Source: Gaiellaceae bacterium (GTDB lineage Bacteria; Actinomycetota; Thermoleophilia; Gaiellales; Gaiellaceae). From it: a stretch of DNA of 61,665 nt. The notes below the pieces were generated by a model. It was not told where the DNA came from. It saw nothing but the letters and a program-made list of their open reading frames with translations, and did no database searches. The translations under genes and the position numbers were made by a program. Below are positions 13,624 to 29,700 of this stretch, in pieces (position 1 is the stretch's first letter; the number at the start of each line of letters is the position of its first letter). The stretch is taken from contig DASUZD010000007.1 of the NCBI GenBank assembly GCA_036377055.1, positions 1 to 61,665 of the forward strand. The letters run 5' to 3'.

Positions 13624-13716
13624 CCCCCCCGGTAGGGGGATGATCGCGAGCCGAGTCGCTGCTTAATCGATGGAGGACGTGTGCGTTTTTGCGGCGACTC
13701 GAAGGAGGTGACGCAC
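13624..13716 (+). promoter_or_regulatory. Structured leader, copy 1, upstream of sORF-1
   Basis: The hairpin is CCCCC-GGTA-GGGGG (13626-13639). A 7-bp stem TGTGCGT (13680-13686) / ACGCACA (13711-13717) encloses the SD GAAGGAGGTG and pairs with the A of the AUG. The same architecture recurs at 16282-16370. Confidence 0.45.
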
Positions 13717-13815
13717 ATGCTGCGGTGGAACGTTCGCTACGTCAGGGCGGTCATCGCTCTCGGCGCGTTCGCGGCTCTGCTCGTGGATGCCGGGGCGGGA
13801 CTTCGTTGGTCGTAG
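13717..13815 (+). CDS. 32-aa single-TM miniprotein (sORF-1): MLRWNVRYVRAVIALGAFAALLVDAGAGLRWS
   Basis: A strong SD precedes the ATG. A paralogue lies at 16371-16469. The two differ by about 10 synonymous third-position changes and only a few conservative replacements, which argues for translation under purifying selection. Confidence 0.55.
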   Translation: MLRWNVRYVRAVIALGAFAALLVDAGAGLRWS

Positions 13816-15716: not shown

Positions 15717-16292
15717 ATGGCACTCGTCTACCCGCTCCTGCTCGGCCTCTTCCTCGCGCCCCTGCTTGGCGGCGACCTCCGACGCCTGGCCGACCTGCGC
15801 CTGCGGGCGACCCGCCTGATCTACCTGGCGCTGACGCTCCAGCTCGTCGCGTTCCCCGTCGGCGCCATGCCTTGGCAGCCATCCGATACCACAGCCGTCG
15901 TCCTCTGGCTCGCGTCCTATGCCTGCCTCGCCGCAGCGACCGGGATCAACATCCGCCTGGGTGGCATGCCGCTGATCGCCGCCGGCCTGGTCGCGAACCT
16001 CGCCGCGATCGTCGCCAACGGCGGTCATATGCCGGTCCTGCCGGCCGCGATGCGCGCCGCCGGCCGCTCGTACCACGTCCACTTCAACAGCGCCGCGGCT
16101 TCGGCGCCTCACCTTCCCTGGCTCGTCGACCGCTGGGCTGTGCCCGACTGGATCCCCCTCGCCAACGTCTTTTCGGTCGGCGATGTCCTCATCGCACTCG
16201 GCGGCGTCTTGTTTCCGCTCGTGGCGACAGGTGCATGCCGGCTCCCAGCGTCACGGGCTGCGGGAGCCGAGGCAAGGCTTTCCCCCCGGTAG
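15717..16292 (+). CDS. DUF5317-like integral membrane protein (copy A)
   Basis: The pattern LGGDLRRLA.L.L....LI.LAL.LQL......ANGGHMPV......SVGDVLIALG matches my memory of DUF5317. It starts 7 nt after the upstream stop. Its TAG stop sits in the loop of the CCCCC/GGGGG hairpin of leader copy 2. Confidence 0.7.
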   Translation: MALVYPLLLGLFLAPLLGGDLRRLADLRLRATRLIYLALTLQLVAFPVGAMPWQPSDTTAVVLWLASYACLAAATGINIRLGGMPLIAAGLVANLAAIVANGGHMPVLPAAMRAAGRSYHVHFNSAAASAPHLPWLVDRWAVPDWIPLANVFSVGDVLIALGGVLFPLVATGACRLPASRAAGAEARLSPR

Positions 16293-16370: not shown

Positions 16371-16469
16371 ATGGTTCGCTGGCAAATCCGATACATCAGG
16401 GCAATGATCGCCCTCGGCGGCTTCGCAGCGCTGCTCGTCGACGCGGGCGCGGGGCTGCGCTGGAAGTAG
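16371..16469 (+). CDS. 32-aa single-TM miniprotein (sORF-2): MVRWQIRYIRAMIALGGFAALLVDAGAGLRWK
   Basis: It is a paralogue of sORF-1 with the same length and the same SD context. A GC-rich hairpin (GGGCCGG / CCGGCCC, 16485-16511) follows it. Confidence 0.55.
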   Translation: MVRWQIRYIRAMIALGGFAALLVDAGAGLRWK

Positions 16470-16529: not shown

Positions 16530-17129
16530 ATGGTCCTCGTCTATCCGCTCGTCGTCGGCCTCCTCGTCGCGCCCCTGCTCGGCGGCGACCTGAGGAAGCT
16601 CGCCCAACTCAGGCTGCGCGGCGTCTCGCTCCTCTACCTCGCGCTCGGCCTCCAGCTCGTCGCGTTCCCCGTCGGCGCCCTTCCGGTGCGGGTGGGCGAC
16701 TCGACGGCCGTCGTCCTCTGGCTGCTGTCGTATGGATTGCTGGCCGTCGCGACGGTCTTGAACATCCGTCGCGCGGGCCTTCCGCTGATCGCAGCCGGCG
16801 TGGCCGCCAACGTGGCCGCGGTCGTCGCGAACGGAGGCCACATGCCCGTGCTCCCGGAGGCCATGCACGCGGCGGGCTACGCCTACGGGGTCCACTTCAA
16901 CAGCGCGGCGCTCGCGAGCCCGCATTTCGCGTGGCTTGTCGACCGCTGGGCCGCGCCTCGCTGGCTCCCGGGAGCGAACGTCTTCTCGCTCGGCGACGTG
17001 CTGATCGCGCTCGGCGGCCTACTCTTCCCGCTCGGCGCGACAGGCGTCTTACGGCGACTGCGGTTGCGCCTGCCTGGCTCCACGCGGCAGCCGGTGTTGC
17101 AGATCCTGGAGGCAAAGCGCGAGGCTTGA
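16530..17129 (+). CDS. DUF5317-like integral membrane protein (copy B)
   Basis: It is a full-length paralogue of 15717-16292 (LGGDLRKLAQLRLRG...ANGGHMPV...SLGDVLIALG). Confidence 0.7.
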   Translation: MVLVYPLVVGLLVAPLLGGDLRKLAQLRLRGVSLLYLALGLQLVAFPVGALPVRVGDSTAVVLWLLSYGLLAVATVLNIRRAGLPLIAAGVAANVAAVVANGGHMPVLPEAMHAAGYAYGVHFNSAALASPHFAWLVDRWAAPRWLPGANVFSLGDVLIALGGLLFPLGATGVLRRLRLRLPGSTRQPVLQILEAKREA

Positions 17130-17160: not shown

Positions 17161-20100
17161 GTGGGCGGAGCGACGGCGTTGCGGTTCAACATCCTGGGGC
17201 CACTCGAGGCGCGGCGACTCGGCGACCCGGTCGACCTAGGCGGCGCGAAGCAGCGGGCGCTGCTCGCAGTGCTGCTCCTGAACGCGAACAAGGTCGTGCC
17301 CGTCGAGCGCTTGATCGACGATCTTTGGGGCGAGGAGCCGCCCGAGACGGCCGCGAACACGCTCCAGGTGTACGTGTCGCAGCTGCGCAAGCTGCTCGAG
17401 CCCGGCGTCTCCGCGGACGAACGCATGCTCCGAACGCAGCCGCCGGGCTACACGGCGGCGATCTCCGACGGGCAGCTCGATCTGACGACGTTCGAGAGGC
17501 TCCTCGTGGAGGGTCGCGAGGCGATGCTCGCCGACGAGCTCGAGCTCGCCGCGACGCAGCTGCGAGAGGCGCTGTCGCTCTGGCGCGGGCCTTGTCTGGT
17601 CGGGCTCCCGATTCACGGTGCGGCGGAGGCGGCGATCGCCCGCCTCGAGGAGCTTCGCCTCGCGGTGAGCGAGGACCTCGTCGTCGTCGAGCTCGGGCTC
17701 GGGCGCCACGCCGAGCTGGTGCCGGAGCTGGAGACGCTGATCGTCGAGCATCCGTATCGCGAGTCGCTGCGCGGTCACCTCATGTTGGCGCTCTATCGCT
17801 CGGGCCGGCAGGCCGACGCGCTCAACGCCTTTCGTGACGCGCGGGAGATCCTCGTCGAGGAGCTCGGGATCGATCCCAGCCGCGAGCTCCAGCGCCTCGA
17901 GCAGGCGATCCTCCAGCACGATCCGGCGCTCGACCTCGTCCCGCGGCCCTCGCGGAGCGCCGAGGAGACTCGGCGTCGGCGCGCTGTCGCCGCCGCCGCG
18001 CGCGGCGAAGCGGAGCGCCGGCGGACGGTTGCGGTCGCCGTCGTCGAGGTGCTGATCGGGTCGGACGACGGCGATGAGCTCGACCCCGAGCTGGTCTCCG
18101 GCGTCGCGTCGCGCGCCTTCGAGGTCCTCGCCGCCGGCGTCGAGCGGCACCACGGCATCGTCTACCGCGCGCTCGGGACGCGAGTCGTGGCGGTCTTCGG
18201 CGCTGCGGCCGTCCACGAGGACGACACGCTTCGCGCCGCGCGCGCGATCCTCGACGCCTCATCCGGGTTGACCGCGCTCGCCCTCGAGCTGGAGCGCGAG
18301 CTCGGCGTCCATCTGACGTTCCAGGCAGGCATCGAGAGCGGGACCGCGCTCGTGGGTCGCGACGACGCGGACGAGCTCGTCGTCACGGGAAACGTCCTCG
18401 CGAGCGCCGAGCACGTGTGTGCATCCGCGGCGGCCGGGGAGGTTCTGATCGGCAGCGCCGCGCAGTCGCTCCTGGCCGGCGCCAGCGAGGCGGAGGAGCG
18501 TGCGCCTTCCGGAGGACGCCCTCTGTGGCGGCTCCTCGAGGTCGACCGGGAAGCGTCGAGCGTGCGCCGTCACGATGCGTCGCTCGTCGGGCGCGAGGAC
18601 GAGGTCGCGGCGCTCAGGCGAGCGGTGGCGCGCGCGGCGAAGGAGCGGCGAGCGGTACTCGTCACCGTCCTCGGCGAGGCGGGGATCGGCAAGTCGCGGC
18701 TCGCGCTCGAAATGCGAAGGCAGAAGGACCCGGAGGTGAGAATGCTCTGGGGCGCCTGCCGGTCGTACGGCGAGGGAGTGACCTTCTCGCCGGTCGCGGA
18801 CGTCGTCGCCGAGCTCGTCGCCGACGAGGATCCGGAGGCGGCGATCGCGGCCCTCCTCGGCGACGACCCTGAGGCGGAGACGATCGCGAGCGTCGTCGCG
18901 GGCGCGATCGGCGCAGGCGAGGCCGTCGGCGCGACGGAGGACGTGTTCCGGGCGGTGCGGCGGCTGCTCCAGGTCGAGGCGCGCGAGCGGCCTCTGCTCG
19001 TGGTCTTCGACGATCTCCACTGGGCCGAGCCGACCTTCCTCGATCTGATCGAGCACGTCGCCGAGTGGTCGCAGGAGGCGCCGATCGTCCTGCTCTGCCT
19101 CGCGCGCCCGGAGCTCCTCGAGGAGCGGCCCTCCTGGGGCAGCGGCGCCGACGGGGCCGTGACGCTCACGCTCGAGCCGCTCTCGGAGGTCGACTCGAAG
19201 GCCCTGATCGACGAGTTCCTCGGCGACCAGGAGCTCGCGAGCGAGACGCGCGACCGCATCGCGTCGTTCGGCGGCGGCAATCCGTTCTTCGTCGAGCAGC
19301 TGCTCGCGTTGGCGGCCCAGGAGCCGCAGTTCGCGGCCCAGCTGTCCTCGCCGCCCACCGTCGAGGCGCTTCTCTCGGCGCGGCTCGACCGCCTGGCGTC
19401 CGAGGAGCGGACGGTGCTCGAGCACGCGTCCGTCGTCGGCGCGGAATTCGCCTTAGACGCCGTGTCGGCGCTGCTGTCGGAAGAGGTTCGAGAATCGGCG
19501 GCAAGAGCGCTCGATCGCCTCGCGGGAAAGCGGCTCGTCCGGCCGGTGGAAGAAATGATGCGGCACTCCGAGAGGTACGCGTTCACGCACGTCCTCATCC
19601 GGGAGACGGCGTACCAGTCGCTGCCGAAGCGCCGCCGCGCCGCCCTGCACGCGCAACTCGCGGAGTGGTTCGTCGACACGAGCCCGAACGGCGCTCCGGA
19701 GCTCGACGAGGTCGCCGGCTACCACCTGGAGCAGGCGTACCTCTACCGGCGCCAGCTTGGCCAGACCGGCGAGGCGGAGCGGGCACTGGCCGAGCAGGGA
19801 GCCGAGCGGCTGGCCGCCGCCGGCCGGCGCGCGTACGCGTTCGGCGACATCCCGGCTGCGGTCACGTTGCTGACCCGCGCCACGCGGCTGCTCGCGCCCG
19901 ATCATCCCGCCCGGCCCGAGACCCTGGCCGAGCTCGGCGAAGCGCTTCGAGATGCCGGCGAGCTCGACCTCGCGGAGTCGACCCTGAGCGAGGCGATCGA
20001 GGCGGCGACGCGGAGCGGCGATGCCGCCGCGGAGGCGCGCGCCGTCGCCGTTCGCTGGCAGGTGCGGCTTCAGATCGACCCGGACGTGTCGTTCGACGAG

Positions 20101-21045
20101 GCCGCGGACGCGATCGGCGCGACGATCGACCGGCTGATGGAGCTCGGGCACGAGCGTGGACTCGCGAAGGCATGGGTCTCGCTCGCCGAGGTTCCGTGGC
20201 TGCGAGGCCAGGCGGAGGCGAGCGAGCACGCGCTCGAACGCGGCCTCGCGTACGCACGCAGCTCCGGCGACACCCGCACGGAGGCACTGGCCCTGAACTC
20301 GCTCGTCGGAGTCGCGATGACGGGCCCGATGCCCGTCAAGGCAGCCATCGAGCGCTGCAACGAGGTCCTCGAGGAGACGCGGGCCGAGGGCCGCGTCGCC
20401 GCGTCGGCGCTTCGCGCGCTCGCCGGGCTCCACGCGATGGAGGGCCGCTTCGACGAGGCGTGGGCGTTCATGGAGCGCGATCGAGCGCTGCTGCGAGAGC
20501 TCGGCCTGAAGGTCGTAGCGTCGTCGTCGGCGGGCGTTGCCGGCTGGATCGGGCTCCTGGCCGGCGACCCCGTTCGCGCCGAGGCGGAGCTCCGCTGGGG
20601 CTATCAGATCCTCGACGAGATCGGCGATCGGAACGGCCTCGCCACAGTCGCCGCCATCCTCGCCGAGGCGACGGTGGCCCAGGGACAGGACGACGAGACA
20701 CTCGCGCTGACCGAGCTCAGCAGCGAGGCGGGGGCGCCCGAGGACATGGCGATCCAGGTCCAGTGGCGCGGCCCCCGCGCGAAGGCGCTCGCACGTCGCG
20801 GCGAGGTCGAGGCCGCCGAGCAGCTCGCGCAGGAGGCGGTCGCGCTCGCCGAACGAAGCGACTTCCTCGACCTGCGCGGCAATGCGCTGATGGACCTCTC
20901 CGAGGTGCTCTGGCTTCGGTCCCGGCCGGCGGACGCGGCGGCCGCGGCGGAGTCCGCCCTCGCTCTCTACCGACGGAAAGGAAACCGCGTTTCGGCTGCG
21001 CGCGCGCGTGCGGCCGTGAAGCGCGCGTCGCTCGCGCCGACGTAG
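17161..21045 (+). CDS. Large SARP/AfsR-family regulator: winged-helix plus BTAD, degenerate class III cyclase-like domain, AAA P-loop, TPR
   Basis: The N-terminus LRFNILGPLE...QRALLAVLLL...LIDDLWGEEPP...LQVYVSQLRK is an OmpR-type winged helix, followed by BTAD. ERRRTVAVAVVEVLIG...HHGIVYRALGTRVVAVFGAAAVHEDD is cyclase-homology sequence with the metal Asp residues replaced. VLGEAGIGKSRLA is a Walker A motif. The C-terminus is TPR-like. GTG start. Confidence 0.8.
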   Translation: MGGATALRFNILGPLEARRLGDPVDLGGAKQRALLAVLLLNANKVVPVERLIDDLWGEEPPETAANTLQVYVSQLRKLLEPGVSADERMLRTQPPGYTAAISDGQLDLTTFERLLVEGREAMLADELELAATQLREALSLWRGPCLVGLPIHGAAEAAIARLEELRLAVSEDLVVVELGLGRHAELVPELETLIVEHPYRESLRGHLMLALYRSGRQADALNAFRDAREILVEELGIDPSRELQRLEQAILQHDPALDLVPRPSRSAEETRRRRAVAAAARGEAERRRTVAVAVVEVLIGSDDGDELDPELVSGVASRAFEVLAAGVERHHGIVYRALGTRVVAVFGAAAVHEDDTLRAARAILDASSGLTALALELERELGVHLTFQAGIESGTALVGRDDADELVVTGNVLASAEHVCASAAAGEVLIGSAAQSLLAGASEAEERAPSGGRPLWRLLEVDREASSVRRHDASLVGREDEVAALRRAVARAAKERRAVLVTVLGEAGIGKSRLALEMRRQKDPEVRMLWGACRSYGEGVTFSPVADVVAELVADEDPEAAIAALLGDDPEAETIASVVAGAIGAGEAVGATEDVFRAVRRLLQVEARERPLLVVFDDLHWAEPTFLDLIEHVAEWSQEAPIVLLCLARPELLEERPSWGSGADGAVTLTLEPLSEVDSKALIDEFLGDQELASETRDRIASFGGGNPFFVEQLLALAAQEPQFAAQLSSPPTVEALLSARLDRLASEERTVLEHASVVGAEFALDAVSALLSEEVRESAARALDRLAGKRLVRPVEEMMRHSERYAFTHVLIRETAYQSLPKRRRAALHAQLAEWFVDTSPNGAPELDEVAGYHLEQAYLYRRQLGQTGEAERALAEQGAERLAAAGRRAYAFGDIPAAVTLLTRATRLLAPDHPARPETLAELGEALRDAGELDLAESTLSEAIEAATRSGDAAAEARAVAVRWQVRLQIDPDVSFDEAADAIGATIDRLMELGHERGLAKAWVSLAEVPWLRGQAEASEHALERGLAYARSSGDTRTEALALNSLVGVAMTGPMPVKAAIERCNEVLEETRAEGRVAASALRALAGLHAMEGRFDEAWAFMERDRALLRELGLKVVASSSAGVAGWIGLLAGDPVRAEAELRWGYQILDEIGDRNGLATVAAILAEATVAQGQDDETLALTELSSEAGAPEDMAIQVQWRGPRAKALARRGEVEAAEQLAQEAVALAERSDFLDLRGNALMDLSEVLWLRSRPADAAAAAESALALYRRKGNRVSAARARAAVKRASLAPT

Positions 21046-21069: not shown

Positions 21070-22353
21070 ATGTCAGTGTCCTCTCGGCCTCGGCGGCGGC
21101 GTGTGCCACAGCTCGGCATGTTGCGCGCGTTCGCGCACCGCGACTTCTCTCTCTACTGGATCGGGCTGATCGTCTCGCTGCTCGGCGACGGCATCTACAC
21201 GGTCGCGATCGCCTGGCAGGTCTACCACCTCTCGAACACGCCGTCCGCGCTCGCGTACGTCGGCGCCGCGTGGACGCTCCCGCAGCTCGCGAGCCTCCTC
21301 TTTGCGGGAGCGATCAGCGACCGCTTCGACCGCAGGCGCGTGATGATCATCGCGAACGCGACGAGCGGCGTCGCCGTCGGCGCAATTGCCGTCCTGGTCT
21401 TGAGCGGAGCGATCAAGCTCTGGCAGCTCTGGCTGCTCGTCGCCGTCCACGGCGTCGGCGTAGCGCTCTTCATCCCGGCGGCCGGGGCGCTCGTCCCCGA
21501 GATCGTCCCCGCCGACCTGCTGGTCGAGGCGAATGCGCTCCGCCAGTTCGTCCGCCCGCTGACGCTGCGCCTGGTCGGGCCCGCGCTCGGGGGTGTGCTC
21601 GTCGCGGTGCTCGGATCCGGCGAGGCGTTCCTCGTCGACGCGCTGTCGTTCTTCTTCGCGCTCGCCGCCACGGCCATGATCCGGGCACGAGTGCGTCCGC
21701 GCGATCTGTCGGCGGCTGCTTCGGTCGCCCGCGAGGTCGCCGACGGCATCCGATTCGTCGGCTCCCAGAGCTGGCTCTGGATCTCGCTCGCCGCGACCGC
21801 CGTCTGGCTGCTCGTCTACGTCGGCCCGCTCGAGGTGCTGCTCCCCTTCCTGGTCCGGAACAAGATCGACCCTGACGCTCGCGATCTCGGCCTCGTCTTC
21901 GCGGCCGGCGGCATCGGCGCGATGCTCTTCGCCTACGTCGTCGGGCAGAAGGGGCTCCCGCGACGCGCCCTCGTCTTCATGTACGCGGTGTGGGCGCTCT
22001 CGATGTTCGCGCTGGCGACGCTCGCCTTCGCCACCACGCTATGGGCGGCGATGCTGTCGAGCTTCTTCATCTTCGGCCTGATCAGCACCGGCGAGATCGT
22101 CTGGCAGACGATGTTGCAGCGGCGCGTCCCAAACGAGCTCCTCGGCCGAGTCGCGAGCGTCGACTGGTTCGTCTCGGCCGCGCTCGTGCCGGTCTCATTC
22201 GTGCTGACGGGACCAGTCGCCGCAGCTGTTGGCGCCTCCAAAACCGTCTTCGCCGCCGGGATCATCGCCGGAACGCTCATGGCGGCGCTGATTGCCGTGC
22301 CGGCGATCCGCGTCCCCGAACGCACGCCCGAGGCGGAGCCCGTCAGGCTCTAA
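21070..22353 (+). CDS. MFS transporter (EntS/MFS_3-like)
   Basis: It has 12 predicted TM helices. The N-terminal FRLYWIG-type motif reads FSLYWIGLIVSLLGDGIY. Confidence 0.85.
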   Translation: MSVSSRPRRRRVPQLGMLRAFAHRDFSLYWIGLIVSLLGDGIYTVAIAWQVYHLSNTPSALAYVGAAWTLPQLASLLFAGAISDRFDRRRVMIIANATSGVAVGAIAVLVLSGAIKLWQLWLLVAVHGVGVALFIPAAGALVPEIVPADLLVEANALRQFVRPLTLRLVGPALGGVLVAVLGSGEAFLVDALSFFFALAATAMIRARVRPRDLSAAASVAREVADGIRFVGSQSWLWISLAATAVWLLVYVGPLEVLLPFLVRNKIDPDARDLGLVFAAGGIGAMLFAYVVGQKGLPRRALVFMYAVWALSMFALATLAFATTLWAAMLSSFFIFGLISTGEIVWQTMLQRRVPNELLGRVASVDWFVSAALVPVSFVLTGPVAAAVGASKTVFAAGIIAGTLMAALIAVPAIRVPERTPEAEPVRL

Positions 22354-22372
22354 AACGGCCCGGACCAGCAAA

Positions 22373-22399
22373 AGACCCGCGGCGCGAACACGCGGGTCT
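22373..22399 (-). terminator. Intrinsic terminator after peptide gene 1, also positioned for the convergent MFS gene
   Basis: A 9-bp perfect stem AGACCCGCG / CGCGGGTCT has a 9-nt loop. An A-run on the plus strand gives a UCUUUU tail on the minus strand. Confidence 0.6.
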
Positions 22400-22418
22400 C
22401 ATTGTCTGGCGTAATTTC

Positions 22419-22511
22419 TTAGCCGCCCCAGCTGGAGAACACGATCACCTTGCTCACCTCCCGAGGCTCCGGCGCAATCTGCTGAATGGTGTTCGCGGGC
22501 GTCTTCTTCAT
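22419..22511 (-). CDS. 30-aa peptide gene 1: MKKTPANTIQQIAPEPREVSKVIVFSSWGG
   Basis: An ATG-initiated 30-codon ORF ends in TAA and has its own terminator. The last 13 codons are nucleotide-identical to those of gene 2, and the ATG context GCGCCATCGAGATG is conserved. There is no strong SD before the ATG. An internal SD plus GTG gives an alternative 9-codon ORF (see findings). Confidence 0.5.
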   Translation of the reverse strand: MKKTPANTIQQIAPEPREVSKVIVFSSWGG

Positions 22512-22653
22512 CTCGATGGCGCCATGCTGGCAGGGTGCGCTGAAGAAACGCTGAAGAGAGGGAAAGGCACCCCGGAACGGTCGAGGTGCACCTCGACTCG
22601 GGCGTTCTTGAAGGCGGCGGCGACGCAGCCGGTCCGAAGGGTCGGACAGCCAA

Positions 22654-22678
22654 AGACCCGCGCGCACAGCGCGGGTCT
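22654..22678 (-). terminator. Intrinsic terminator after peptide gene 2
   Basis: A 10-bp perfect stem AGACCCGCGC / GCGCGGGTCT has a 5-nt loop and a UCUUUGG tail on the minus strand. Confidence 0.6.
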
Positions 22679-22699
22679 CAGCTTTCCGTCATGTGGTTG

Positions 22700-22792
22700 C
22701 TAGCCGCCCCAGCTGGAGAACACGATCACCTTGCTCACCTCCTTGGGGCGGTCTGCCGCGACTCGTGCTGTTCTGTCGGCGGTCGTCGTCAT
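22700..22792 (-). CDS. 30-aa peptide gene 2: MTTTADRTARVAADRPKEVSKVIVFSSWGG
   Basis: It has the same length, the same ATG context and an identical 42-nt 3' block (22701-22742 = 22420-22461). Its N-terminal 17 codons are almost completely diverged. It has its own terminator. Confidence 0.5.
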   Translation of the reverse strand: MTTTADRTARVAADRPKEVSKVIVFSSWGG

Positions 22793-22860
22793 CTCGATGG
22801 CGCGATGCTGGCAGTGCCCGCTGAAAGACCGCTGAAGACGGCTCAGTACGATGGGCGGCG

Positions 22861-23727
22861 GTGACCGATCCCGACGTCGACGGCGCCGCTCGGTTTCTCG
22901 CCGGGAACGCGCGGGTGCTCGACCGCCGCCGCTTCGAGCGGCTCTTCTGGGGTGGAGACGCGCGGCCGGTCCGCGACGCCGTCGCCGCGTTTCGCAACCC
23001 CGACGGCGGCTTCGGGCACGCGCTCGAGCCCGACGGCCGAACCCCGGCGAGCCAGCCGGCCGCGATCGCGATGGCTCTGGCCACGCTCGACGAGGCCGAC
23101 GCGTGGGACGAGGAGCTCGTCGCCGGCGCCTGCGAATGGCTCGCCGCCAACGCACCGGAGGAGGGCGGCGCGACGTTCGTCGAGCCATCGGTCGAGGGCT
23201 GGCCGCACGCGCCGTGGTGGGAGCCGGAGGAGGGTCGGCCGGCGTCGCTCCTCACGACCGGGCTGATTGCCGGAACGCTGCACGCCCGCCACGTCGACCA
23301 TCCGTGGCTCGACCGCGCGACGGACCTGCTCTGGCGGCGGATCGAGGGGCTCGACGAGGCGGGGCCGTACGCCGTTCGCGGCCTGCTGCACTTCCTCCAG
23401 CACGTTCCCGATCGCGACCACGCCGAGCACGCGTTCGGGCGCGTCGAGGCGCTCCTCCTCGACGGTGACCTCGTCGCGCTCGATCCCGAAGCAGAAGGCG
23501 AGGTCCGCACGCCGCTCGACTTCGCGCCGAACCGGGACTCGATCGCGCGCCGGCTCTTCGACCAGCCGACGATCGAGGCGCACCTCGACCACCTCGCCGG
23601 CGGTCAAGGGGAGGACGGCGGCTGGAGCTTCAACTGGTCCGCCTGGTCGCCTGTCGCGACGAGCGAGTGGCGCGGCTCGATCACCGTGGACGCTCTCCGC
23701 GTGCTCCGCGCCAACGGGCGTCTCTGA
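22861..23727 (+). CDS. Prenyltransferase/squalene-oxidase-repeat (alpha/alpha toroid) protein
   Basis: Repeated DGGF/DGGW motifs (NPDGGFGHALE, GEDGGWSFNW) are typical of terpene-cyclase and protein-prenyltransferase beta-subunit-like toroids. GTG start, diverging from peptide gene 2. Confidence 0.6.
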   Translation: MTDPDVDGAARFLAGNARVLDRRRFERLFWGGDARPVRDAVAAFRNPDGGFGHALEPDGRTPASQPAAIAMALATLDEADAWDEELVAGACEWLAANAPEEGGATFVEPSVEGWPHAPWWEPEEGRPASLLTTGLIAGTLHARHVDHPWLDRATDLLWRRIEGLDEAGPYAVRGLLHFLQHVPDRDHAEHAFGRVEALLLDGDLVALDPEAEGEVRTPLDFAPNRDSIARRLFDQPTIEAHLDHLAGGQGEDGGWSFNWSAWSPVATSEWRGSITVDALRVLRANGRL

Positions 23728-23729
23728 GG

Positions 23730-24446
23730 GTGCTCCGGCTCCCGTCCGCGACCGCGGAGGTCTGGTGGGCCCGACGGAGCGATGCCGCAGCGCGTTTCGA
23801 GACGCTTCTCGACGAGGCCGAGCGCGAGCGCCTGAGCGCGTATCGCCGCGACGAGGATCGCGAGCGCTTCCTCGTCGGCTGCGCGCTCGCCAAGGCCGCC
23901 GCGGCCGCGTACACCGGCGAGCCCGTAGACGCCGTTCGCCTGGACCGAACGTGCGACGCTTGCGGGAAGCCGCACGGCAAGCCGAGGCTCGCCGGCAGCG
24001 AGCTGGAGCTGTCGGTGACGCACTCCGGCGAGCTCGTGGGCGTGGCGTTCGCCGCGGGGAGGCCGGTCGGGCTCGACGTCGAGCAGCTGACGGAGCGGGC
24101 CCGGGCGACCGAGCTCGAGGGACTGGTCCTGTCGGATGGAGAGTCGGCGGCGCTCGCGAGGCTCGGCCCGCTCGACCGCGAGCGGGCGTTCCTCGTCGCG
24201 TGGACGCGCAAGGAGGCGCTCACCAAGGCCACAGGCGCGGGCCTTCGCCTGCCGATGCGGGACGTGGTCGTCTCGCCGGCGGCCGAGCCGCCGCGGCTGG
24301 TCGGGTGGCCCTGGCCGGCGCCGCCGCAGACCGTCGCGCTCTTCGACCTCGAGGTCGAGGCGGGGTACGTGGCGGCGCTGGCCGCGCTCGGCGAGTGCCG
24401 CAGCGTCGAGACCCGCGACGGCTCGACGCTCCTCGCGGGCACGTGA
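23730..24446 (+). CDS. 4'-phosphopantetheinyl transferase (Sfp type)
   Basis: Motifs: GKP.....ELSVTHSGELVGVAF, VGLDVE and W(T)RKEALTKA. I take the GTG at 23730, 3 nt after the upstream stop. Confidence 0.8.
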   Translation: MLRLPSATAEVWWARRSDAAARFETLLDEAERERLSAYRRDEDRERFLVGCALAKAAAAAYTGEPVDAVRLDRTCDACGKPHGKPRLAGSELELSVTHSGELVGVAFAAGRPVGLDVEQLTERARATELEGLVLSDGESAALARLGPLDRERAFLVAWTRKEALTKATGAGLRLPMRDVVVSPAAEPPRLVGWPWPAPPQTVALFDLEVEAGYVAALAALGECRSVETRDGSTLLAGT

Positions 24447-24505: not shown

Positions 24506-26647
24506 GTGAGGCTTCGCCCGCCCGTCGCTCACCGCCTGGCTCTGGTCGCGATCGTCCTGGGCGCGGGCTACCTGGCCGTCTCCTACTCGGTCCCCGCGAC
24601 CGAGTGGGCCGTCATGACGGACGAGCTCCAGACCTCGAAGCTCGCGACCAGCGTCGCGCAGACGCTCTCGCCGGTGCCGCGGATCCACGGCGAGTACTAC
24701 GGCGCGCTCAGCCAGCTCTACCCGGTGCTGATCGCGCCCTTCTTCGGGCTCTTCTCGGCTCCGGCCGCGGTGACGACGGCGCACGCGCTGAACGCGCTGC
24801 TGCTCGCCGGCGCGGCCTGGCCCGCGTACCTGCTCGCCCGCGCCGTGACCGGTTCGCGCGCCGCGGGCTATGCAGCCGCCGCTCTCACCGCGTTCGTCCC
24901 CTGGCTCGTCCTCTCGACGACGCTGCTGACCGAGAACGCGGCCTACCCGGCCTTCGTCTGGGGAGTCTGGCTCTGCTATCGCACGCTGGTCGAGCCGAGC
25001 CTGGCTCGCGACACGGCCGCCCTCGGCGGCCTCGTGCTCGTCTTCTTCGCCCGGACACAGCTGTTCGTGCTGGCGGTGGCGCTTCCATTCGCGCTCCTCG
25101 CGCACGACACCGGCTTCGCGCTCGCAACGGCGAGCCGAGGCCGCAGGCTGGCGGCGCTCGCCCGAGGAGCGCGCCGAGCCGTCACGGCCCACCCGCTGCT
25201 GGTCGTCGCGTACGTGGCCGCGGGGGCAGCCGCGCTTGCGACCCGCAACTCGCTCGACCGCGTCCTCGGCAACTACGGGCAGGCGGCACACGGTGACCTC
25301 TTCCCGAGCGGGATCTGGCGCGCGGCAGCAGTCCACTTCGACTACGTCGTCGTCGGCGTGGGCGTCGCGCCCTTCCTGCTCGCGACCGCGTGGAGCCTCG
25401 TCGCGGTGCTCAGGCCTGAACGGCGAGAGGCGCACGCCTTCGCTGTCCTCCTGCTGGCGCTCGTCCCGCTGCTGACGCTCGAGGCGGCCTCGTTCGACCT
25501 CCGTTTCACGCCCGGCGCGTTCGCCCAGGACCGCTACCTCTGCTACCTCGCGCCGCTGTTCGCGGTCGGCGCCGCCGGCGCGTTGCTCGAGGGCCGGCAG
25601 CGCGTCCTGAGCGCCGCGCTCGTGGTCGTGCTCGGCGCCGCGTTCTTCTGGATCGCAGGCCTCGCCTCGTACGGCACCGGCGTCGTCGTCTTCTGGGCGT
25701 CGCCGGCCGCGGCCTTCCACCCCACGCTGGCGAGCGCCGCGAGCGCCTTCGGGCTGTCGCTCGAGGAGCTCGTGCGCTGGGGAGGCGTGGTCGTCGCGGC
25801 CGCACTCGCCGCTGCGGTCTGGCGGGCGCCGGGTCGTGCCACGCTCGTCGTCGTCGCAGGCGCGGTCGCCGCCTTCGGCGCCGTCGAGGCGGCGTACGTC
25901 TTCGACCGGGTCGCCGCTCCGGCGACGCGGCGAGCGCGGCTCATCGAGGGAATCCGGCGTGACTGGATCGACGCCCGCCTCCCGGCCGGCAGCTCCGTGG
26001 CGCTCGTCGCGAACCCGCGCCTCCGTCCCGAGTACTGGTGGGACGCCGAGTTCTGGAACAAGACCGTCGACCGCGCCGTCAGCGTCGACGGCGGCCCGAC
26101 CTCGACGCCCTTCCCGGTGACCCGCCTCACCGTCGATCCCGGAACCGGCGCCGTCCGTGGGCGCGAGCCGACGTCCTTCCTGGTCGTGGACGGCAGCGAG
26201 TCGCGCTTCCGCTTCGAAGGCACCACACGCCTCGCCACCGCCGGACCGCTCGCGCTCGTCCAGGTCGCCCGTCCCTACCGCGCGCTGTGGCTGACGCAGG
26301 GCGTGACGGCCGACGGCTGGGCCCGCCCCGGCCGCACCGTCCACATCCGTTTCTTCGCCGGCACCCGGCCGGGCGCGCGCCGGATCGTGGTCACGCTGAG
26401 CCCGTTCAGCGAGTCCCGCAGCCCGCAGAGCTTCACGCTGCGCAGCGGCACAACGATCCGTCGCGGTCAGGCGAGCGCGGGCCGGCCAGCCCGTGTCCGC
26501 TTCACGGCGTGCGCCCCGCCTCAGGGGTACGCGCTCGCCAACCTGGTCACGCACGGCGTCGCCCGCCTCCCCGACGGCCGCGTCGTCGGACTTCACGTCG
26601 ATCGCGTGGAGACCGCGGCCGCATCGAGAACGACCTGCCGTGGCTGA
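24506..26647 (+). CDS. GT-C-fold-like polytopic membrane protein (ArnT/PMT-like) with a C-terminal extracytoplasmic domain of about 240 aa
   Basis: It has about 12 TM helices and an acidic DE motif in the first loop (MTDELQ), and its size and topology fit GT39/GT83-type enzymes. The family call rests on pattern only. Confidence 0.5.
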   Translation: MRLRPPVAHRLALVAIVLGAGYLAVSYSVPATEWAVMTDELQTSKLATSVAQTLSPVPRIHGEYYGALSQLYPVLIAPFFGLFSAPAAVTTAHALNALLLAGAAWPAYLLARAVTGSRAAGYAAAALTAFVPWLVLSTTLLTENAAYPAFVWGVWLCYRTLVEPSLARDTAALGGLVLVFFARTQLFVLAVALPFALLAHDTGFALATASRGRRLAALARGARRAVTAHPLLVVAYVAAGAAALATRNSLDRVLGNYGQAAHGDLFPSGIWRAAAVHFDYVVVGVGVAPFLLATAWSLVAVLRPERREAHAFAVLLLALVPLLTLEAASFDLRFTPGAFAQDRYLCYLAPLFAVGAAGALLEGRQRVLSAALVVVLGAAFFWIAGLASYGTGVVVFWASPAAAFHPTLASAASAFGLSLEELVRWGGVVVAAALAAAVWRAPGRATLVVVAGAVAAFGAVEAAYVFDRVAAPATRRARLIEGIRRDWIDARLPAGSSVALVANPRLRPEYWWDAEFWNKTVDRAVSVDGGPTSTPFPVTRLTVDPGTGAVRGREPTSFLVVDGSESRFRFEGTTRLATAGPLALVQVARPYRALWLTQGVTADGWARPGRTVHIRFFAGTRPGARRIVVTLSPFSESRSPQSFTLRSGTTIRRGQASAGRPARVRFTACAPPQGYALANLVTHGVARLPDGRVVGLHVDRVETAAASRTTCRG

Positions 26648-26781
26648 CCGAACCAGCCCCGTGTCGGTCGGATTGTTAAGCGTTGTTGACGGACTAAGCG
26701 ACAAGTCGTAGGTTCGCTCCTGCCGTCAGAACTGGAGTGGGAGGCCCCGCAAGTGCCTTCCCCGGGAGCGAAGGAGTCGCC

Positions 26782-29700
26782 ATGCCGCAGCATGCCCTCA
26801 CACCGGCCTCGAAGGGAATCCTGCGGCTCGGTCGCCGCACGCGCGCAGCGAGCCTCGCGCTCGCAGGGCTGGCGCTCGCCGTGGTCCTCGTGGGCGTCGT
26901 CGGCTCGGCGCAGGCGGCTCCGCCCTCGACCGCGATCACCTACGCCTACGACGAGCTCGGCCGGCTGGTCGCGGTCTCCGATCCGACCCAGGGCGCCGCG
27001 AAGTACACGTACGACGCCGTCGGCAACCTGACGGCGATTGCGCGGCAGACGGTCAGCGCCGTCTCCGTCCTCAGCTTCGCGCCGAAGGCCGGTCCCGCCG
27101 GGACGACCGTGACGATCTACGGCACTGGCTACAGCGCGACGCCGTCGCAGAACACGGTCAAGTTCAACGGCACCGTCGGCACGGTCGTCTCGTCGCAGGC
27201 GACGAAGATCGTCGCCACGGTCCCGGCCGGCGCGACGACGGGGACGATCAGCGTGACCGCCCCGGGCGGCACGGGGACGTCGTCGGGCTCCTACACCGTC
27301 GGCCCCGCAGGCCCGTCGATCACGGGCTTCTCGCCAGGCGTCGCCTCGGTTGGCGGATCGGTGACGGTCACCGGAACGGGCTTCGACACGTCCGCGATCA
27401 ACGACGTCCTCGCGACCGGCAAGGCGCGCGCCCAGGTGACGGCCGCGAGCGCAACGAGCCTCACCGGCTCGATCGGCGGGCCCGGCAGCGGCCACGTCGT
27501 CGTCGCGACACCGACCGGAACCGCGACCTCGACCGGGATCATCTACGTCCCGCCGTCGCCGTACACCGCAGCGGACGTCGACAACACGGCGTCGATGTCG
27601 ATCGGCGACACGCGCACGGTGTCGGTCGGCGCCGCGAACAAGATCGCGCTCGTCGCCTTCGACGGCAGCTCGGGCCAGCGCGTCTCGCTCACTTTCACAA
27701 GCGTCACGTTCAGCGGCTCGAGCTGCTGTAGCGCGACCGCCTCGATCCTCAACCCCGACGGCTCGACGCTCGTCAGCCCGAGCTACTTCGGCACGAGCGG
27801 CGGCTTCGTCGACGCAGCGACGCTGCCGCAGGACGGCACGTACACGATCGTCATCGACCCCCAGGGGACGGCGACCGGCAGTGCCTCGATGACGCTCGGG
27901 AACGTCCCGGCCGATGCCACCGCCTCGATCACGCCGGGCGGTTCGCCCGTCACCCTGACGACCACCGTCGCGGGCCAGAACGGCTCGCTGACCTTCAGCG
28001 GCACGAGCGGCCAGCGGATCAGCCTCGACGTGGGCAGCGTCACGTTCTCGGGCTCGAGCTGCTGTAGCGCGACCGTCGCGCTCGTGGCCCCGGACGGCTC
28101 GACGCTCGTGCCGGCGAACTACATCGGCACCCTGACGAGCGGCGAGGTGATCGACGCCACCACGCTTCCTCAGACCGGCACGTACACGCTGGTCGTCGAT
28201 CCCCAAGGACAGGCGACCGGCAGCGCCCGGTTCACGCTCTACAACGTCCCCGGAGACACGGGCGGGACGATCACGCCCGGCGGCTCGCCCGTGACGGTCA
28301 CGATCTCGACCCCGGGGCAGAACGCGAGCTACACGTTCAGCGGGTCACAGAACCAGCGCATCAGCCTGAACATCGACCAGGTCACGCTTGGCACCTCGAG
28401 CTGCTGCAGCGGCAAGGTGTCGATCCGCAACCCGGACGGCTCGACACTCGTCAGCCCGACCTACTTCGGCACGCTCGGGAACACCTTCGTCGACACGCTC
28501 ACCCTCGCCCAGACGGGCACGTACACGATCTTCGTCGACCCGCAGGGAAACGCGACCGGATCGGCTCGGCTCACGCTCTACGACGTCCCCGCCGACGCGA
28601 CGGGAACGATCACACCAGGCGGCGCCGCACAGACCGTCACCACGACGGTCCCGGGCCAGAACGCGAGCTACACGTTCAGCGGCACGCAGAACCAGCGCAT
28701 CAGCCTGAATATCGACAACGTCACCATGGGCAGCTCGAGCTGCTGCAGCGCGAAGGTCTCGATCAAGAACCCCGACGGCTCGACGCTCGTCAATCCAACC
28801 TTCTTCGGCACGCTCGGAAACACCTTCATCGACACGCTCACCCTGGCGCAGACGGGGACCTACACGATCGTCGTCGACCCGCAGTCCGACGCCACCGGTT
28901 CCGCCCGCTTCTCCCTCTACGACGTGCCCGCCGACACGACCGGCTCCATGTCGATCGGCGGGCCGTCGCAGAACGTCACCGTCACCACGCCGGGTCAGAA
29001 CGCGACCCTCACGTTTGCCGGCACGACCAACAAGAACATCCACCTCACGCTCTCGAACGTCACCATCGGCACGTCGAGCTGCTGCAGCGGCAAGGTCTCG
29101 ATCAAGAACCCCGACGGCTCGACGCTCGTCAATCCAACCTTCTTCGGGACGCTCGGGAACACCACCGTCAGCGCGACACTCCCGGTCGACGGCACGTACA
29201 CGATCCTCGTCGACCCGCAGTCGAACGCCACCGGCTCGGCCACGCTCACCCTCACCGACCCGCCGGTCGCGGAGACGCTCCGTGCGGCCCCGCTCTTCGA
29301 CCCCGTGACGAACCTGCTCCAGCCGCCGCGGATCGAGTCTCCGGCGAAGGTCGCACGCGAGCGCGCGCCGCAGGGCGCAGCTCGCTCAGCCGCGCCCACC
29401 TCCACGGCGGCAAACCCGCACCCGAACATCGACTTCGACACCCCGGACGCCGAGGACTGGACGCCGGGCGCGGGCAACCGGACCGGCGACTGGCGGCGCC
29501 ACCTGCCGCACAGCCCGTGGCAGTCGCTCGCGCCCCTGCGCGCCCGCGGCGGGATCACTGCCCTCTCCGGACAGACGCTGACGCTGAACGGCAAGCCGCT
29601 CGAAGGCGTCAAGGTCGAGCTGGAGGACACGAGCCTCACGACGAAGGCCGACGACACCGGCCGCTTCCTGCTCTCGGAGGCGCCCGACGGCCATCACGTG

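Follow-up and report, generated by a model that had tools for sequence, protein, structure and literature searches.

The closest described counterpart of the locus analyzed here is the AfsR-AfsS pair of Streptomyces. AfsR recruits RNA polymerase to the afsS promoter, to which it binds as a side-by-side dimer. In the AfsR-bound afsS promoter of Streptomyces coelicolor, the "-35" element is TTCAGC, the -10 element is suboptimal, and the spacer is 20 bp; more generally, SARP-type regulators recognize direct repeats with an 11-bp spacing, the 3' copy being placed 8 bp from the -10 element (PMC10936776, PMC11301090). The AfsR motif is YGTTYAKSD, and AfsS is a small, fast-evolving protein (17 to 38% identity) whose gene adjoins afsR and is activated by AfsR and which binds AfsR via short amino acid repeats (PMC10832544). 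According to a 2026 phylogenomic survey, most AfsR-like regulators have no known target, and AfsS orthologues are recognizable only by synteny and repeats (bioRxiv 10.64898/2026.09.02.748808). Direct repeats of a similar 11-bp kind are also bound by OmpR-type regulators such as PhoP (PMC6988585).

The window considered here is a stretch of 61,665 nucleotides (contig DASUZD010000007.1, assembly GCA_036377055.1) from an uncultured Gaiellaceae bacterium. Its minus strand carries two units, spaced 281 bp apart, each consisting of a promoter block, a 30-codon open reading frame (ORF), and a strong intrinsic terminator (Table 1). With a probability of about 0.65, these units and a nearby regulator gene represent an AfsR/AfsS-like pair of a regulator and a small peptide in uncultured soil Actinomycetota, in which the peptide would be the dedicated output or partner of the regulator. 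This reading builds on the observed anatomy, conservation, synteny, and coding signature of the units, from which we infer both the protein that binds the promoter boxes and the role of the peptide.

Table 1. Features of the regulator-peptide locus in the window (positions are those of the whole stretch)
Feature	Position	Strand	Properties
AfsR-like large SARP regulator, 1294 aa	17161..21045	+	Pfam: Trans_reg_C + BTAD + AAA_16 (NB-ARC-type ATPase) + TPR (TPR_12)
MFS_3 transporter	21070..22353	+	Pfam; separated from the SARP gene by 24 nt; convergent with both peptide genes
Unit A terminator	22366..22400	-	-28.8 kcal/mol, z = -5.1
Peptide gene A	22419..22511	-	30 codons + TAA: MKKTPANTIQQIAPEPREVSKVIVFSSWGG
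Unit A internal Shine-Dalgarno (SD)-like element and GTG	22446..22462	-	GGGAGGTG, 6 nt, in-frame GTG (codon 22); invariant in six DNA-level members
Unit A -10-like hexamer	22524..22529	-	CAGCAT; 8 nt past the proximal heptamer, ATG 12 nt on
Unit A activator box	22538..22555	-	TTCAGCG-TTTC-TTCAGCG; exact match
Unit B terminator	22649..22679	-	GAGACCCGCGC...GCGCGGGTCTTTGG; -32.1 kcal/mol, z = -5.3
Peptide gene B	22700..22792	-	30 codons + TAG: MTTTADRTARVAADRPKEVSKVIVFSSWGG; aligns with the family
Unit B internal SD-like element and GTG	22727-22743	-	Same element as in unit A
Unit B -10-like hexamer	22805..22810	-	CAGCAT; proximal heptamer 8 nt upstream, distal TTCAGC 20 nt upstream, ATG 12 nt downstream
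Unit B activator box	22819..22836	-	TTCAGCG-GTCT-TTCAGCG; two heptamers, 11-bp period; exact match

The initial annotation of this DNA had described two minus-strand 30-codon ORFs as free-standing mini-genes. Both are present, and each has a promoter and a terminator of its own. Alignment of the 281-bp units also bore out the 42-nt identical block reported there, which spans codons 17 to 30 plus the TA of the stop codon; the 27-nt core of this run occurs at just two sites in the window, both of them in the units (0 expected). The promoter blocks of units A and B are identical at 39 of 47 positions. For codons 2 to 17 (48 nt), the identity is 37.5% without gaps, against 30% expected by composition, and rises to 52% with a one-codon shift. 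Given this shifted identity and the fact that the N termini of both peptides can be aligned to the family consensus (see below), the N-terminal half should be seen as weakly constrained, neither hypervariable nor random. Thus, of the pattern originally proposed, the conserved C terminus stands, but the hypervariable, near-random N-terminal half does not; as judged from the alignments, that half is loosely conserved. The relatives have one copy of the gene, which is duplicated in tandem in the window.

The two strong intrinsic terminators noted earlier were confirmed by folding: each is a strong hairpin followed by a T-run, with a z score of about -5, and none of 200 shuffled sequences folds as well. 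Since peptide gene A and the MFS gene converge on it, the unit A terminator probably acts in both directions. An attenuator or leader peptide, suggested by the Trp codon just before the terminator, was rejected, as no unit has a co-oriented downstream gene: what lies 3' of each terminator is either another unit or the 3' end of a convergent gene.

The TTCAGCG repeats in the promoter blocks had been noticed before, but their 11-bp phasing and their spacing to the -10 hexamer, which mark them as an activator box of the SARP/AfsR type, had been missed. Exact TTCAGCG-N4-TTCAGCG is found only at these two sites in the window, with 3e-4 expected from base composition. When the units are compared with the box architecture of the afsS promoter (PMC10936776), the distal TTCAGC would stand in for the -35 element, 20 bp from a weak -10 (CAGCAT), and TCTTCAGCG agrees with the AfsR motif at 8 of 9 positions, including an identical TTCAGC core. 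The same arrangement of two or three heptamers, TTCAGCG or TTAAGCG, repeating every 11 bp and followed after 8 nt by a hexamer of the NANNNT type, was seen in all eight units read at the DNA level (A and B of the window and those of loci L014, L020, L022, L023, L024, and L025). A relaxed box pattern run over 196 kb (the window and the related loci) gave 12 overlapping matches, all at the eight peptide-gene promoters, where 0.03 would be expected; four control loci lacked the boxes. A generic sigma-70 scan found no canonical promoter at the units, as is expected of an activator-dependent promoter.

In each of the 7 lineages, a start codon follows the -10 hexamer by 6 to 12 nt, which puts it 0 to 6 nt from the predicted transcription start, and it is always in frame with the C terminus. 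As the ATG comes only 12 nt past the -10 in the window's units, their mRNA should be leaderless or nearly so, the predicted leader not exceeding about 6 nt. A predicted leader of 2 to 6 nt means that the ATG is not strictly leaderless.

The best solved-structure matches of the regulator are to S. coelicolor AfsR (8hvr, 8k60, and 8jke; E = 2e-50, residues 5 to 257), with the alignment running to residue 504. The base-reading residues T88 and R92 of AfsR are replaced by V and Q in the window's regulator, so that assignment of the boxes relies on their architecture and co-occurrence with the regulator gene; on these grounds, they are likely of the SARP/AfsR type, with the neighboring AfsR-like regulator as the candidate binder. 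The variant box TTAAGCG is found in the two more divergent SARP loci, and both regulators also share a T-to-A change next to the recognition helix. The 24-nt gap suggests that the SARP and MFS_3 genes probably form one operon; this gap is 1 nt in L023, and the two genes overlap in the P0163 locus.

The peptide ORFs are convergent with the regulator gene and lie 1.4 to 1.7 kb past its stop codon, with the MFS_3 gene in between. The SARP-MFS-peptide order, with the peptide gene convergent downstream, is kept in the independent lineages L014, L022, and L023, whose loci were retrieved via the MFS protein alone. L020 retains the MFS-peptide arrangement, its upstream ORF being cut at the contig end and unannotated. 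In two SARP-only loci, the small ORF directly adjoins the regulator gene. In L024 (SARP 65% identical), it is a convergent 19-aa ORF downstream, and in L025 (SARP 56% identical), a divergent 34-aa ORF upstream with three AAWGS (AAWGSSPV-type) repeats. Boxes and a small Trp-containing ORF are both present in each of the seven related SARP loci whose DNA could be read. The conserved neighbor set of the peptide gene comprises the regulator, the MFS transporter, DUF5317, and c-di-GMP enzymes (HD-GYP/GGDEF), whereas the far-side neighbor varies by locus: a transposase or a cupredoxin protein in L014, L020, L022, and L023 and an alpha/alpha-toroid-like protein in the window. The latter has 4047 homologues; at the three of their loci that were read (78 to 82% identity), which lack a SARP gene, there was no peptide gene and no box, and the neighbors were different, so the toroid protein and the Sfp-type phosphopantetheinyl transferase (PPTase) are not considered part of the system. 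In terms of synteny, the conserved partner of the peptide gene is the AfsR-like SARP, usually together with MFS_3, both on the other side of the units and overlooked in the initial annotation; the toroid protein, the PPTase, and the distant kinase genes do not have this role.

As the initial annotation had stated, the peptides belong to no recognized precursor family. Searches of Pfam and NCBIfam gave no match with E values up to 10 and no curated RiPP precursor model, and the sole Rfam match, to Leu_leader (E = 5.6), is restricted to the terminator hairpin. Exact-sequence look-ups in the protein collection found neither the window's peptides nor the four peptides recovered by synteny. A degenerate pattern for exact VIVFSSWGG plus stop, run against genome and metagenome collections, returned only chance matches, off-frame in Verrucomicrobia TPR genes; this motif proved too narrow, as most members end in FASWGS, and the family-level DNA pattern is GTNTTYGCNWSNTGGGGNWSNTRR, i.e., VFASWG(S) followed by a stop.

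These comparisons, based throughout on metagenomic contigs from uncultured organisms, place the two genes in an unannotated family of peptides of about 30 residues. The close family has 12 distinct members of 28 to 31 aa, with the consensus MKTPxDTKQRVxAExxREVSKVIVFASWGS, plus one more distant relative with the three AAWGS repeats; six of the close members, all gene-called, were added by a profile search (E = 2e-7 to 8e-4). Invariant across the 12 close members are E18, V19, V22, I23, F25, S27, W28, and G29, and DTKQRV is conserved in the N-terminal part; several members start with MKKTP, as peptide A does. The peptides combine a hydrophilic, basic N-terminal half (GRAVY about -1, with no hydrophobic h-region) with an invariant hydrophobic end, EV..VI.F.SWG (GRAVY +1.4 to +1.6 for the last 9 residues). 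A type I toxin was rejected because the hydrophobic stretch is only 7 to 9 residues long.

Pairwise pN/pS is too noisy on 30 codons, so the case for coding leans on stop codon turnover, in-frame indels, and GC3. The stop position is fixed while its codon varies among TAA, TAG, and TGA, and the GAGGTG/GAGGAG motif follows the start codon at a distance of 51, 51, 51, 51, 48, 45, and 21 nt, with all three length changes (3, 6, and 30 nt) in frame. Members differ synonymously (TTC/TTT, TCG/TCC, and ATC/ATT) or by conservative replacements that take multinucleotide changes (AGC, GCT, and ACT), and between L014 and L020, 5 of the 7 single-nucleotide codon differences in codons 2 to 11 are synonymous. 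GC3 is 0.94 in the C-terminal part, compared to 0.90 in the window's real genes, but only 0.69, a value like that of noncoding DNA, in the N-terminal half, whose codon-usage score is about 0.

Within the C-terminal part, the internal SD-like element with its GTG is invariant in all six DNA-level members and appears to be under constraint at the nucleotide level. Both GGAGGTG and GGTGATC are complementary to the 3' tail of 16S rRNA and are equally invariant in these six. The Val codons there are always GTG, while the window's genes use GTC for 69% and GTG for 25% of Val. An internal start at this position could yield MIVFSSWGG, in place of the 30-residue product or in addition to it.

The locus resembles AfsR-AfsS in several respects. 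The regulator combines SARP, NB-ARC-type ATPase, and TPR parts and has AfsR as its best structural match; a small, fast-evolving ORF lies near its gene; two 11-bp-phased repeats with the TTCAGC core lie 8 bp (proximal) and 20 bp (distal) from a weak -10; and the distant member from L025 has three short amino acid repeats, just as AfsS has repeats. There are also differences. AfsS has 63 to 87 aa with 2 to 5 repeats, which define it, while the peptides here have 28 to 31 aa, half that size, and those of the window carry a single (A/S)SWG(G/S) motif. We know of no sequence resemblance between these peptides and AfsS. The afsS gene is immediately downstream of afsR in the same direction, whereas the peptide genes are convergent with the regulator gene across MFS_3; the mRNA is nearly leaderless and contains the internal SD and GTG; and the regulator is about 300 aa longer than AfsR and has other base-contact residues. 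Finally, the host is an uncultured actinobacterium outside Streptomyces, and the gene is tandemly duplicated in the window.

On the AfsR/AfsS-like reading, each unit would consist of an activator-dependent promoter, an ATG 12 nt past the -10, a 30-codon ORF, and an intrinsic terminator. The AfsR-like SARP/NB-ARC/TPR regulator, switched on by a signal, would bind the heptamers, leading to transcription of both peptide genes. The peptides of 28 to 31 aa would be its dedicated small output or partner, a functional counterpart of AfsS, and most likely the peptide feeds back on the regulator through its TPR sensor, much as AfsS binds to AfsR. Another possibility is that it is exported by the co-operonic MFS_3 transporter.

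Export is central to an unlikely alternative that accepts the same SARP-driven promoter and differs only in the peptide's site of action, and that takes up the peptide pheromone named in the initial annotation: a secreted autoinducing peptide that, whole or as its hydrophobic C-terminal part, would be exported by MFS_3, sensed by the TPR part of the regulator, and feed back positively on the peptide promoters in a quorum-sensing-like loop. The adjacency of the regulator and MFS_3 genes, probably one operon, and the conservation of this pair with the VIVFASWGS-type peptide fit such a circuit. The basic N terminus and the short hydrophobic C terminus ending in Gly-Gly or Gly-Ser recall the streptococcal SHP pheromones (MKK...IIVGG), the three AAWGS copies in the L025 relative are reminiscent of a multicopy propeptide, and a subtilisin-type peptidase gene is found near the SARP gene in L025 and L026. 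Like the RRNPP systems (Rgg/SHP, ComR/XIP, PlcR/PapR, and AimR/AimP), the locus places a TPR-containing transcription factor beside a tiny peptide gene, with a hydrophobic conserved C-terminal end as the candidate active part; the predicted boxes of the regulator on the peptide promoter would permit autoinduction, and a transporter gene is nearby. However, the putative receptor is a STAND/NLR-type SARP rather than an HTH-TPR protein, and the phylum is Actinomycetota. The peptides lack a signal peptide, and PptAB, Eep, Opp, or any other processing protease or Opp-type importer is not conserved in the module: no Opp-type binding protein was identified there, and two BPD_transp_1 permeases lie at 8.5-10.2 kb. 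In addition, peptides occur without an MFS gene at the SARP loci L024 and L025, and to our knowledge, MFS_3 proteins include no peptide exporters. For Actinomycetota, quorum sensing by peptides has yet to be established (PMC10075063). The fuller version, in which the peptide is the encoded ligand of an NLR/STAND-type transcription factor, with AfsR-box promoters, MFS export, TPR sensing, and a short active form from the internal SD and GTG, is decidedly unlikely; if true, it would constitute a peptide autoinduction (quorum-sensing-like) circuit in Actinomycetota with a receptor class unrelated to RRNPP. It is doubtful, too, that the internal start is the only one, so that the product would be a 9-residue micropeptide, MIVF(A/S)SWG(S/G), and the upstream 45 to 57 nt a 5' untranslated region open by chance or, in the extreme version, that the transcript is a ribosome-binding small RNA. 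The invariant complementarity to 16S rRNA points in this direction, as do the two Val codons that are always the minor GTG (taking the lineages as independent, P is about 1e-3 at each site), the drop in GC3 upstream of the internal start, and the retention of GGGGAGGAGG plus 5 nt plus GTG in L024. All seven lineages nevertheless have a start codon near the predicted transcription start in the frame of the C terminus, the length changes of the N-terminal part are all multiples of three, the changes in codons 2 to 11 between L014 and L020 are mostly synonymous or conservative, and DTKQRV is conserved at the amino acid level over 12 members. Both versions are further disfavored by the lack of conserved RNA structure across the units besides the terminator and of an Rfam match to anything but its hairpin.

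The identity of the activator might also be questioned, as PHO boxes, too, are built from direct repeats of 11 nt (core, GTTCACC) and in Streptomyces overlap AfsR sites (PMC6988585), and the window's SARP has not kept the base-contact residues of AfsR. It is nonetheless very unlikely that another OmpR-family response regulator, such as a PhoP-like protein, binds the boxes and that the proximity of the SARP is coincidental or indirect: all 7 of the lineages with a SARP of this clade have the boxes, regardless of what else lies nearby, and the control loci have none, the TTAAGCG variant tracks the two divergent SARPs with the shared T-to-A change, and the 8-bp spacing to the -10 is a SARP signature. 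Highly improbable, and largely refuted by synteny, is the view of the initial annotation that these are RiPP precursors, whose conserved C-terminal core would be modified by the toroid/prenyltransferase-like protein, the PPTase, and the distant kinase/NTase and then exported. It rested on the neighboring toroid protein and PPTase. In its favor, the duplicated small genes lie beside the toroid-like protein (QxxDGGW motif), the PPTase, and the MFS transporter, and the conserved Ser-Trp-Gly end is a possible modification site; MftA and PqqA, RiPP precursors with a conserved C-terminal core, are likewise about 30 aa long, with a loose N-terminal half and a conserved C-terminal motif, and are missed by gene callers. 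Yet the toroid and PPTase genes are not syntenic in the relatives; the toroid homologues occur in unrelated contexts devoid of the peptide gene, and the toroid side is occupied by a transposase or cupredoxin protein in four loci. Unlike mftA and pqqA, the peptide gene has no co-conserved radical-SAM or other tailoring enzyme, RRE-domain protein, or peptidase, and no precursor model matches its product. As for the kinase/NTase cluster about 15 kb away, of which the peptides had been suggested as substrates, it yielded only a weak Hpr_kinase_C Pfam match (5975-7222), outside the conserved part of the related loci read.

The AfsR/AfsS-like pairing would extend the Streptomyces paradigm to a deep uncultured soil lineage, in which an AfsR-like regulator is consistently accompanied by an unannotated mini-gene of about 30 codons bearing afsS-type boxes, and suggests that pairing a large SARP with a small peptide dedicated to it is a general design of long standing. 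Annotation has a gap here: metagenome pipelines had called none of the four peptide genes found through synteny. The locus also offers a search recipe, namely, phased TT(C/A)AG(C/T) heptamers 8 bp from a -10 element beside a regulator gene (in pattern form, TTMAGYN5TTMAGYN9-10 followed by NANNNT), by which partners may be found regardless of their sequence. The pairing makes binding of the SARP domain to the heptamers and of the peptide to the TPR sensor experimentally addressable, and it would provide a candidate target for the orphan AfsR-like NLR-type regulators, which number in the thousands across Actinomycetota.

The minus strand of the window carries, at 22366-22836, two units spaced 281 bp apart (unit A and, upstream of it, unit B), each consisting of a ~47-nt promoter block with TTCAGCG-N4-TTCAGCG, an ATG codon, a 30-codon ORF, and a GC-rich hairpin followed by a T-run. 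The promoter blocks are identical at 39 of 47 positions, codons 17 to 30 are identical over all 42 nt, and the core of this stretch has no further copy within the window. The exact double heptamer occurs at only two sites in the window, against 3e-4 expected from base composition, and both terminators fold far more stably than shuffled controls (z ~ -5). The two tandem, separately terminated 30-codon genes described in the initial annotation are thereby borne out. Their C-terminal identity is confirmed as well, but the supposed hypervariability of the N-termini is not: codons 2 to 17 are 37.5% identical without gaps and 52% identical with a one-codon shift, and both N-termini can be aligned to the family consensus. 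The hairpin of unit A fills the 65-nt gap (22354-22418) between the stop codons of the convergent MFS gene and peptide A and probably terminates transcription arriving from either side. Rfam gave a single match, Leu_leader (E = 5.6), which corresponds to this hairpin in plus-strand orientation.

Features of the window and of related loci on other contigs (L014 to L025)
Feature	Locus	Coordinates	Strand	Remarks
HD_5 (HD-GYP-type) protein	window	12150-13718	-	
GGDEF + HD_5 protein	window	13875-15710	+	
Two DUF5317 proteins	window	15717-16292 and 16530-17129	+	
32-aa hydrophobic ORF	window	16371-16469	+	MVRWQIRYIRAMIALGGFAALLVDAGAGLRWK; between the two DUF5317 genes; strong SD AAGGAGGTGA
SARP, 1294 aa	window	17161-21045	+	Trans_reg_C + BTAD + AAA_16 + TPR
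MFS_3 transporter	window	21070-22353	+	starts 24 nt after SARP gene
Two peptide genes	window	22419-22792	-	convergent with MFS gene
Unit A ORF	window	22511..22419	-	30 codons, MKKTPANTIQQIAPEPREVSKVIVFSSWGG
Unit B ORF	window	22792..22700	-	30 codons, MTTTADRTARVAADRPKEVSKVIVFSSWGG
16S-complementary stretches	window	22446-22462 (A), 22727-22743 (B)	-	
Toroid-like protein, 288 aa	window	22861-23727	+	no Pfam or NCBIfam family
Sfp-type PPTase	window	23667-24446	+	
713-aa ORF	window	24506-26647	+	function not assigned; no family; just upstream of RHS-repeat gene
RHS-repeat protein, 2315 aa	window	26737-33684	+	TIG, DUF6531, 11 RHS repeats
Shorter ORF	window	34804-35667	+	weak RHS-repeat match
Gene near-identical to 32-aa ORF	L014	1300-1398		just upstream of DUF5317
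Peptide, 30 aa	L014			MKTPVDTKQRVEAERFREVSEVIVFASWGS
Peptide, 30 aa	L020			MKTPIDRKQRLTTEDVREVATVIAFASWGS
Peptide, 29 aa	L022			MKRQSIKRQRISVEAREVTEVIVFASWGS
Peptide, 28 aa	L023			METPLGSHRYRDAVGEVTTVILFASWGS
rve_3/HTH transposase genes	L014; L020; L021	7855-8256; 3255-4331; 2320-2901		directly past peptide unit
19-aa ORF	L024	~11900-12050	-	MFKRFDGEEAKVKASGTWN; GTG start
Second large SARP	L024	1313-5752		guanylate-cyclase domain
34-aa gene	L025	7779-7883	-	MNANNTQNDAAWGSSPVRSAAWGSSPVSSAAWGS; normal SD
tRNA-Val	L025	7628-7701		convergent, past terminator of 34-aa gene

A profile built from the two window peptides and searched against 1.84 billion representative proteins retrieved six further gene-called members (E = 2e-7 to 8e-4), all metagenomic and labeled hypothetical. 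Two of the six have an N-terminal extension that is the translated promoter (LQRFFSGRC.HGAIEM, corresponding to CTTCAGCG..TTCAGCGG...), so the boxes (heptamers presumed to bind an activator) are retained there too. The family consensus is MKTPxDTKQRVxAExxREVSKVIVFASWGS, with E18, V19, V22, I23, F25, S27, W28, and G29 invariant in the alignment; no family in Pfam, NCBIfam, or Rfam matched the peptides or the region. The exact peptides of the syntenic loci were absent from the protein collection, which indicates that gene callers overlook such genes.

Several features of the six members read as DNA are evidence for translation of the C-terminal part. The stop codon is fixed in position and reads TAA, TAG, TAG, TAA, TGA, and TAG; synonymous differences are seen (TTC/TTT, TCG/TCC, ATC/ATT); small residues are replaced through multi-nucleotide changes (AGC, GCT, ACT; GGC, TCG); and the GC3 of the last 13 codons is 0.94, versus 0.90 in the real genes of the window. 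Evidence for translation from the 5' ATG comes from the start codon, found 6 to 12 nt past the -10 hexamer and in frame in all seven lineages. The start codon and the GAGGTG/GAGGAG motif are separated by 51, 51, 51, 51, 48, 45, and 21 nt, so that each of the three length changes is a multiple of three (P ~ 0.04). In addition, five of the seven single-nucleotide codon differences between L014 and L020 in codons 2 to 11 are synonymous, the other two being V/I or V/L (P ~ 0.02). Counting against this start, the N-terminal part has a GC3 of only 0.69 and a codon-usage score of about zero; pairwise pN/pS carries no information at a length of ~30 codons. A pure small-RNA reading is unlikely, since the search for conserved RNA structure among the units found none beyond the terminator, where one A-U pair is replaced by G-C through a compensatory change.

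A further complication for the 5' ATG start is the invariant block of all DNA-level members, which contains GGAGGTG and GGTGATC, both complementary to the 3' tail of 16S rRNA, the former with proper spacing ahead of an in-frame GTG. Both of its Val codons are always GTG, versus 69% GTC and 25% GTG in the window genes, and this fixed minor codon is a sign of nucleotide-level selection. Possible roles of the block are ribosome pausing, ribosome recruitment, or an internal start yielding the 9-residue MIVF(A/S)SWG(S/G).

Upstream, each of the eight units available as DNA carries two or three heptamers with an 11-bp period; exactly 8 nt further on comes a hexamer whose second base is A (8/8) and whose sixth is T (7/8: CAGCAT, GAGCAT, GACTAT, CAGGAT, or CACGAT; L025 has TAGAAC instead). 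The heptamer is TTCAGCG, with a TTAAGCG variant in two divergent loci: L024 has three boxes (TTCAGCA, TTAAGCG, TTAAGCG), then CACGAT and, 6 nt on, GTG, and L025 has TTCAGTG/TTAAGCG. In 196 kb comprising the window, SARP loci, and control loci, a relaxed box pattern matched these promoters only (0.03 matches expected). According to the published SARP rule, the direct repeats are spaced by 11 or 22 bp, the 3' repeat being 8 bp from the -10 element; the Streptomyces coelicolor afsS promoter combines a poor -35 element, TTCAGC, within the upstream repeat with a suboptimal -10 element and an unusual 20-bp spacer (PMC10936776; PMC11301090). The distance from the distal TTCAGC to CAGCAT is exactly 20 nt in units A and B, and TCTTCAGCG agrees at 8 of 9 positions with the AfsR motif YGTTYAKSD, derived from 20 Streptomyces afsS promoters (PMC10832544).

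The best solved-structure match of the window SARP is AfsR (E = 2e-50), and the DNA-contact residues W74, P79, S91, R94, and K95 are conserved. Since the base-reading T88 and R92 are replaced by V and Q, the predicted binding of SARP to the boxes is based on architecture and on strict co-occurrence. The two loci with the TTAAGCG variant are the very ones in which the SARPs have a common T-to-A change beside the recognition helix, a weak hint of covariation. A PhoP-like regulator (PMC6988585) is a minor alternative as the box binder.

Among the loci L014 and L020 to L023, which were fetched solely via homologues of the MFS protein, the anatomy of the small unit is alike throughout. The order SARP (~1290 aa), MFS_3, convergent small unit is common to L014 (with five near-identical contigs), L022, and L023; L020 and L021 retain MFS and the peptide unit; there, the contig end truncates the unannotated ORF that precedes MFS. 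The 65% identical SARP of L024, a locus with no MFS gene, is directly followed by the convergent 19-aa ORF, and in L025 the 34-aa gene and a SARP paralogue (56% identical) are divergently oriented. In the most distant locus, L026 (47% identical paralogue), both the boxes and a matching small ORF are absent. The window comes from an uncultured soil actinomycete, and the nearest named relatives of its proteins are from MAGs labeled Actinomycetota or Gaiellaceae.

HD_5 and GGDEF-HD_5 proteins and DUF5317 adjoin this SARP clade in the window, L014, L023, and L025, an arrangement suggesting that the regulator is connected with c-di-GMP turnover. BldD is a c-di-GMP effector. Both afsR and afsS are under BldD control (PMC10832544), which the HD-GYP/GGDEF genes recall only as a parallel. 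As judged from the set retained in syntenic loci, the conserved module comprises c-di-GMP enzymes with DUF5317, the AfsR-like SARP, MFS_3, and the peptide; the 32-aa ORF is probably a small membrane protein within it. The far-side neighbor of the unit varies (an rve_3 transposase, a cupredoxin protein, or, in the window, the toroid protein), and this side looks like a rearrangement breakpoint, which would explain why the toroid and PPTase genes adjoin the peptides in the window alone. Synteny contradicts the initial annotation, in which the peptides were linked with the toroid protein, the PPTase, and a distant kinase: three loci with toroid homologues (78 to 82% identity) had unrelated contexts with neither a peptide gene nor boxes. 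The toroid-like protein has a terpene-cyclase/prenyltransferase-like QxxDGGW motif and >4000 homologues in soil metagenomes, where the genomic context varies; only 25 nt separate its GTG start from the unit B box. The RHS genes farther downstream are possibly a polymorphic toxin locus.

In the proposed mechanism, the activated AfsR-like NLR/STAND regulator would bind the heptamers as a side-by-side dimer and replace the missing -35 contact at the peptide promoters. Each peptide gene would give a short, separately terminated, near-leaderless mRNA, although the predicted leader of 2 to 6 nt is not zero, a complication for translation from the 5' ATG. The peptide would be a dedicated small output of the regulator, and the WG(S/G)-ended peptides may bind the TPR sensor of their own regulator. 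Alternatively, the peptide might be exported as a signal by the tightly linked MFS_3 transporter, an outcome of greater novelty, because signaling in Actinomycetota is attributed to small molecules and not to peptides (PMC10075063).

The reading as a small partner of the regulator finds its model in AfsS, which is activated by AfsR, is poorly conserved (17 to 38% identity), and binds AfsR via short repeats, raising the promoter affinity of AfsR (PMC10832544). The window system shares regulator architecture and promoter criteria with AfsR-AfsS, and the three AAWGS repeats of the L025 peptide, which has the WGS end of the main family, echo the AfsS repeats. However, the window peptides lack the 2-5 repeats used to define AfsS, and size, orientation, the intervening MFS gene, and host lineage differ. 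By this comparison, the system would function like AfsR-AfsS, with peptides that are not AfsS itself. According to a 2026 preprint (bioRxiv 10.64898/2026.09.02.748808), AfsS orthologues can be recognized only by synteny plus repeats, and thousands of AfsR-like regulators have no known targets. The peptide family provides a concrete candidate target for one clade of these regulators, and the box architecture a search handle for such partners.
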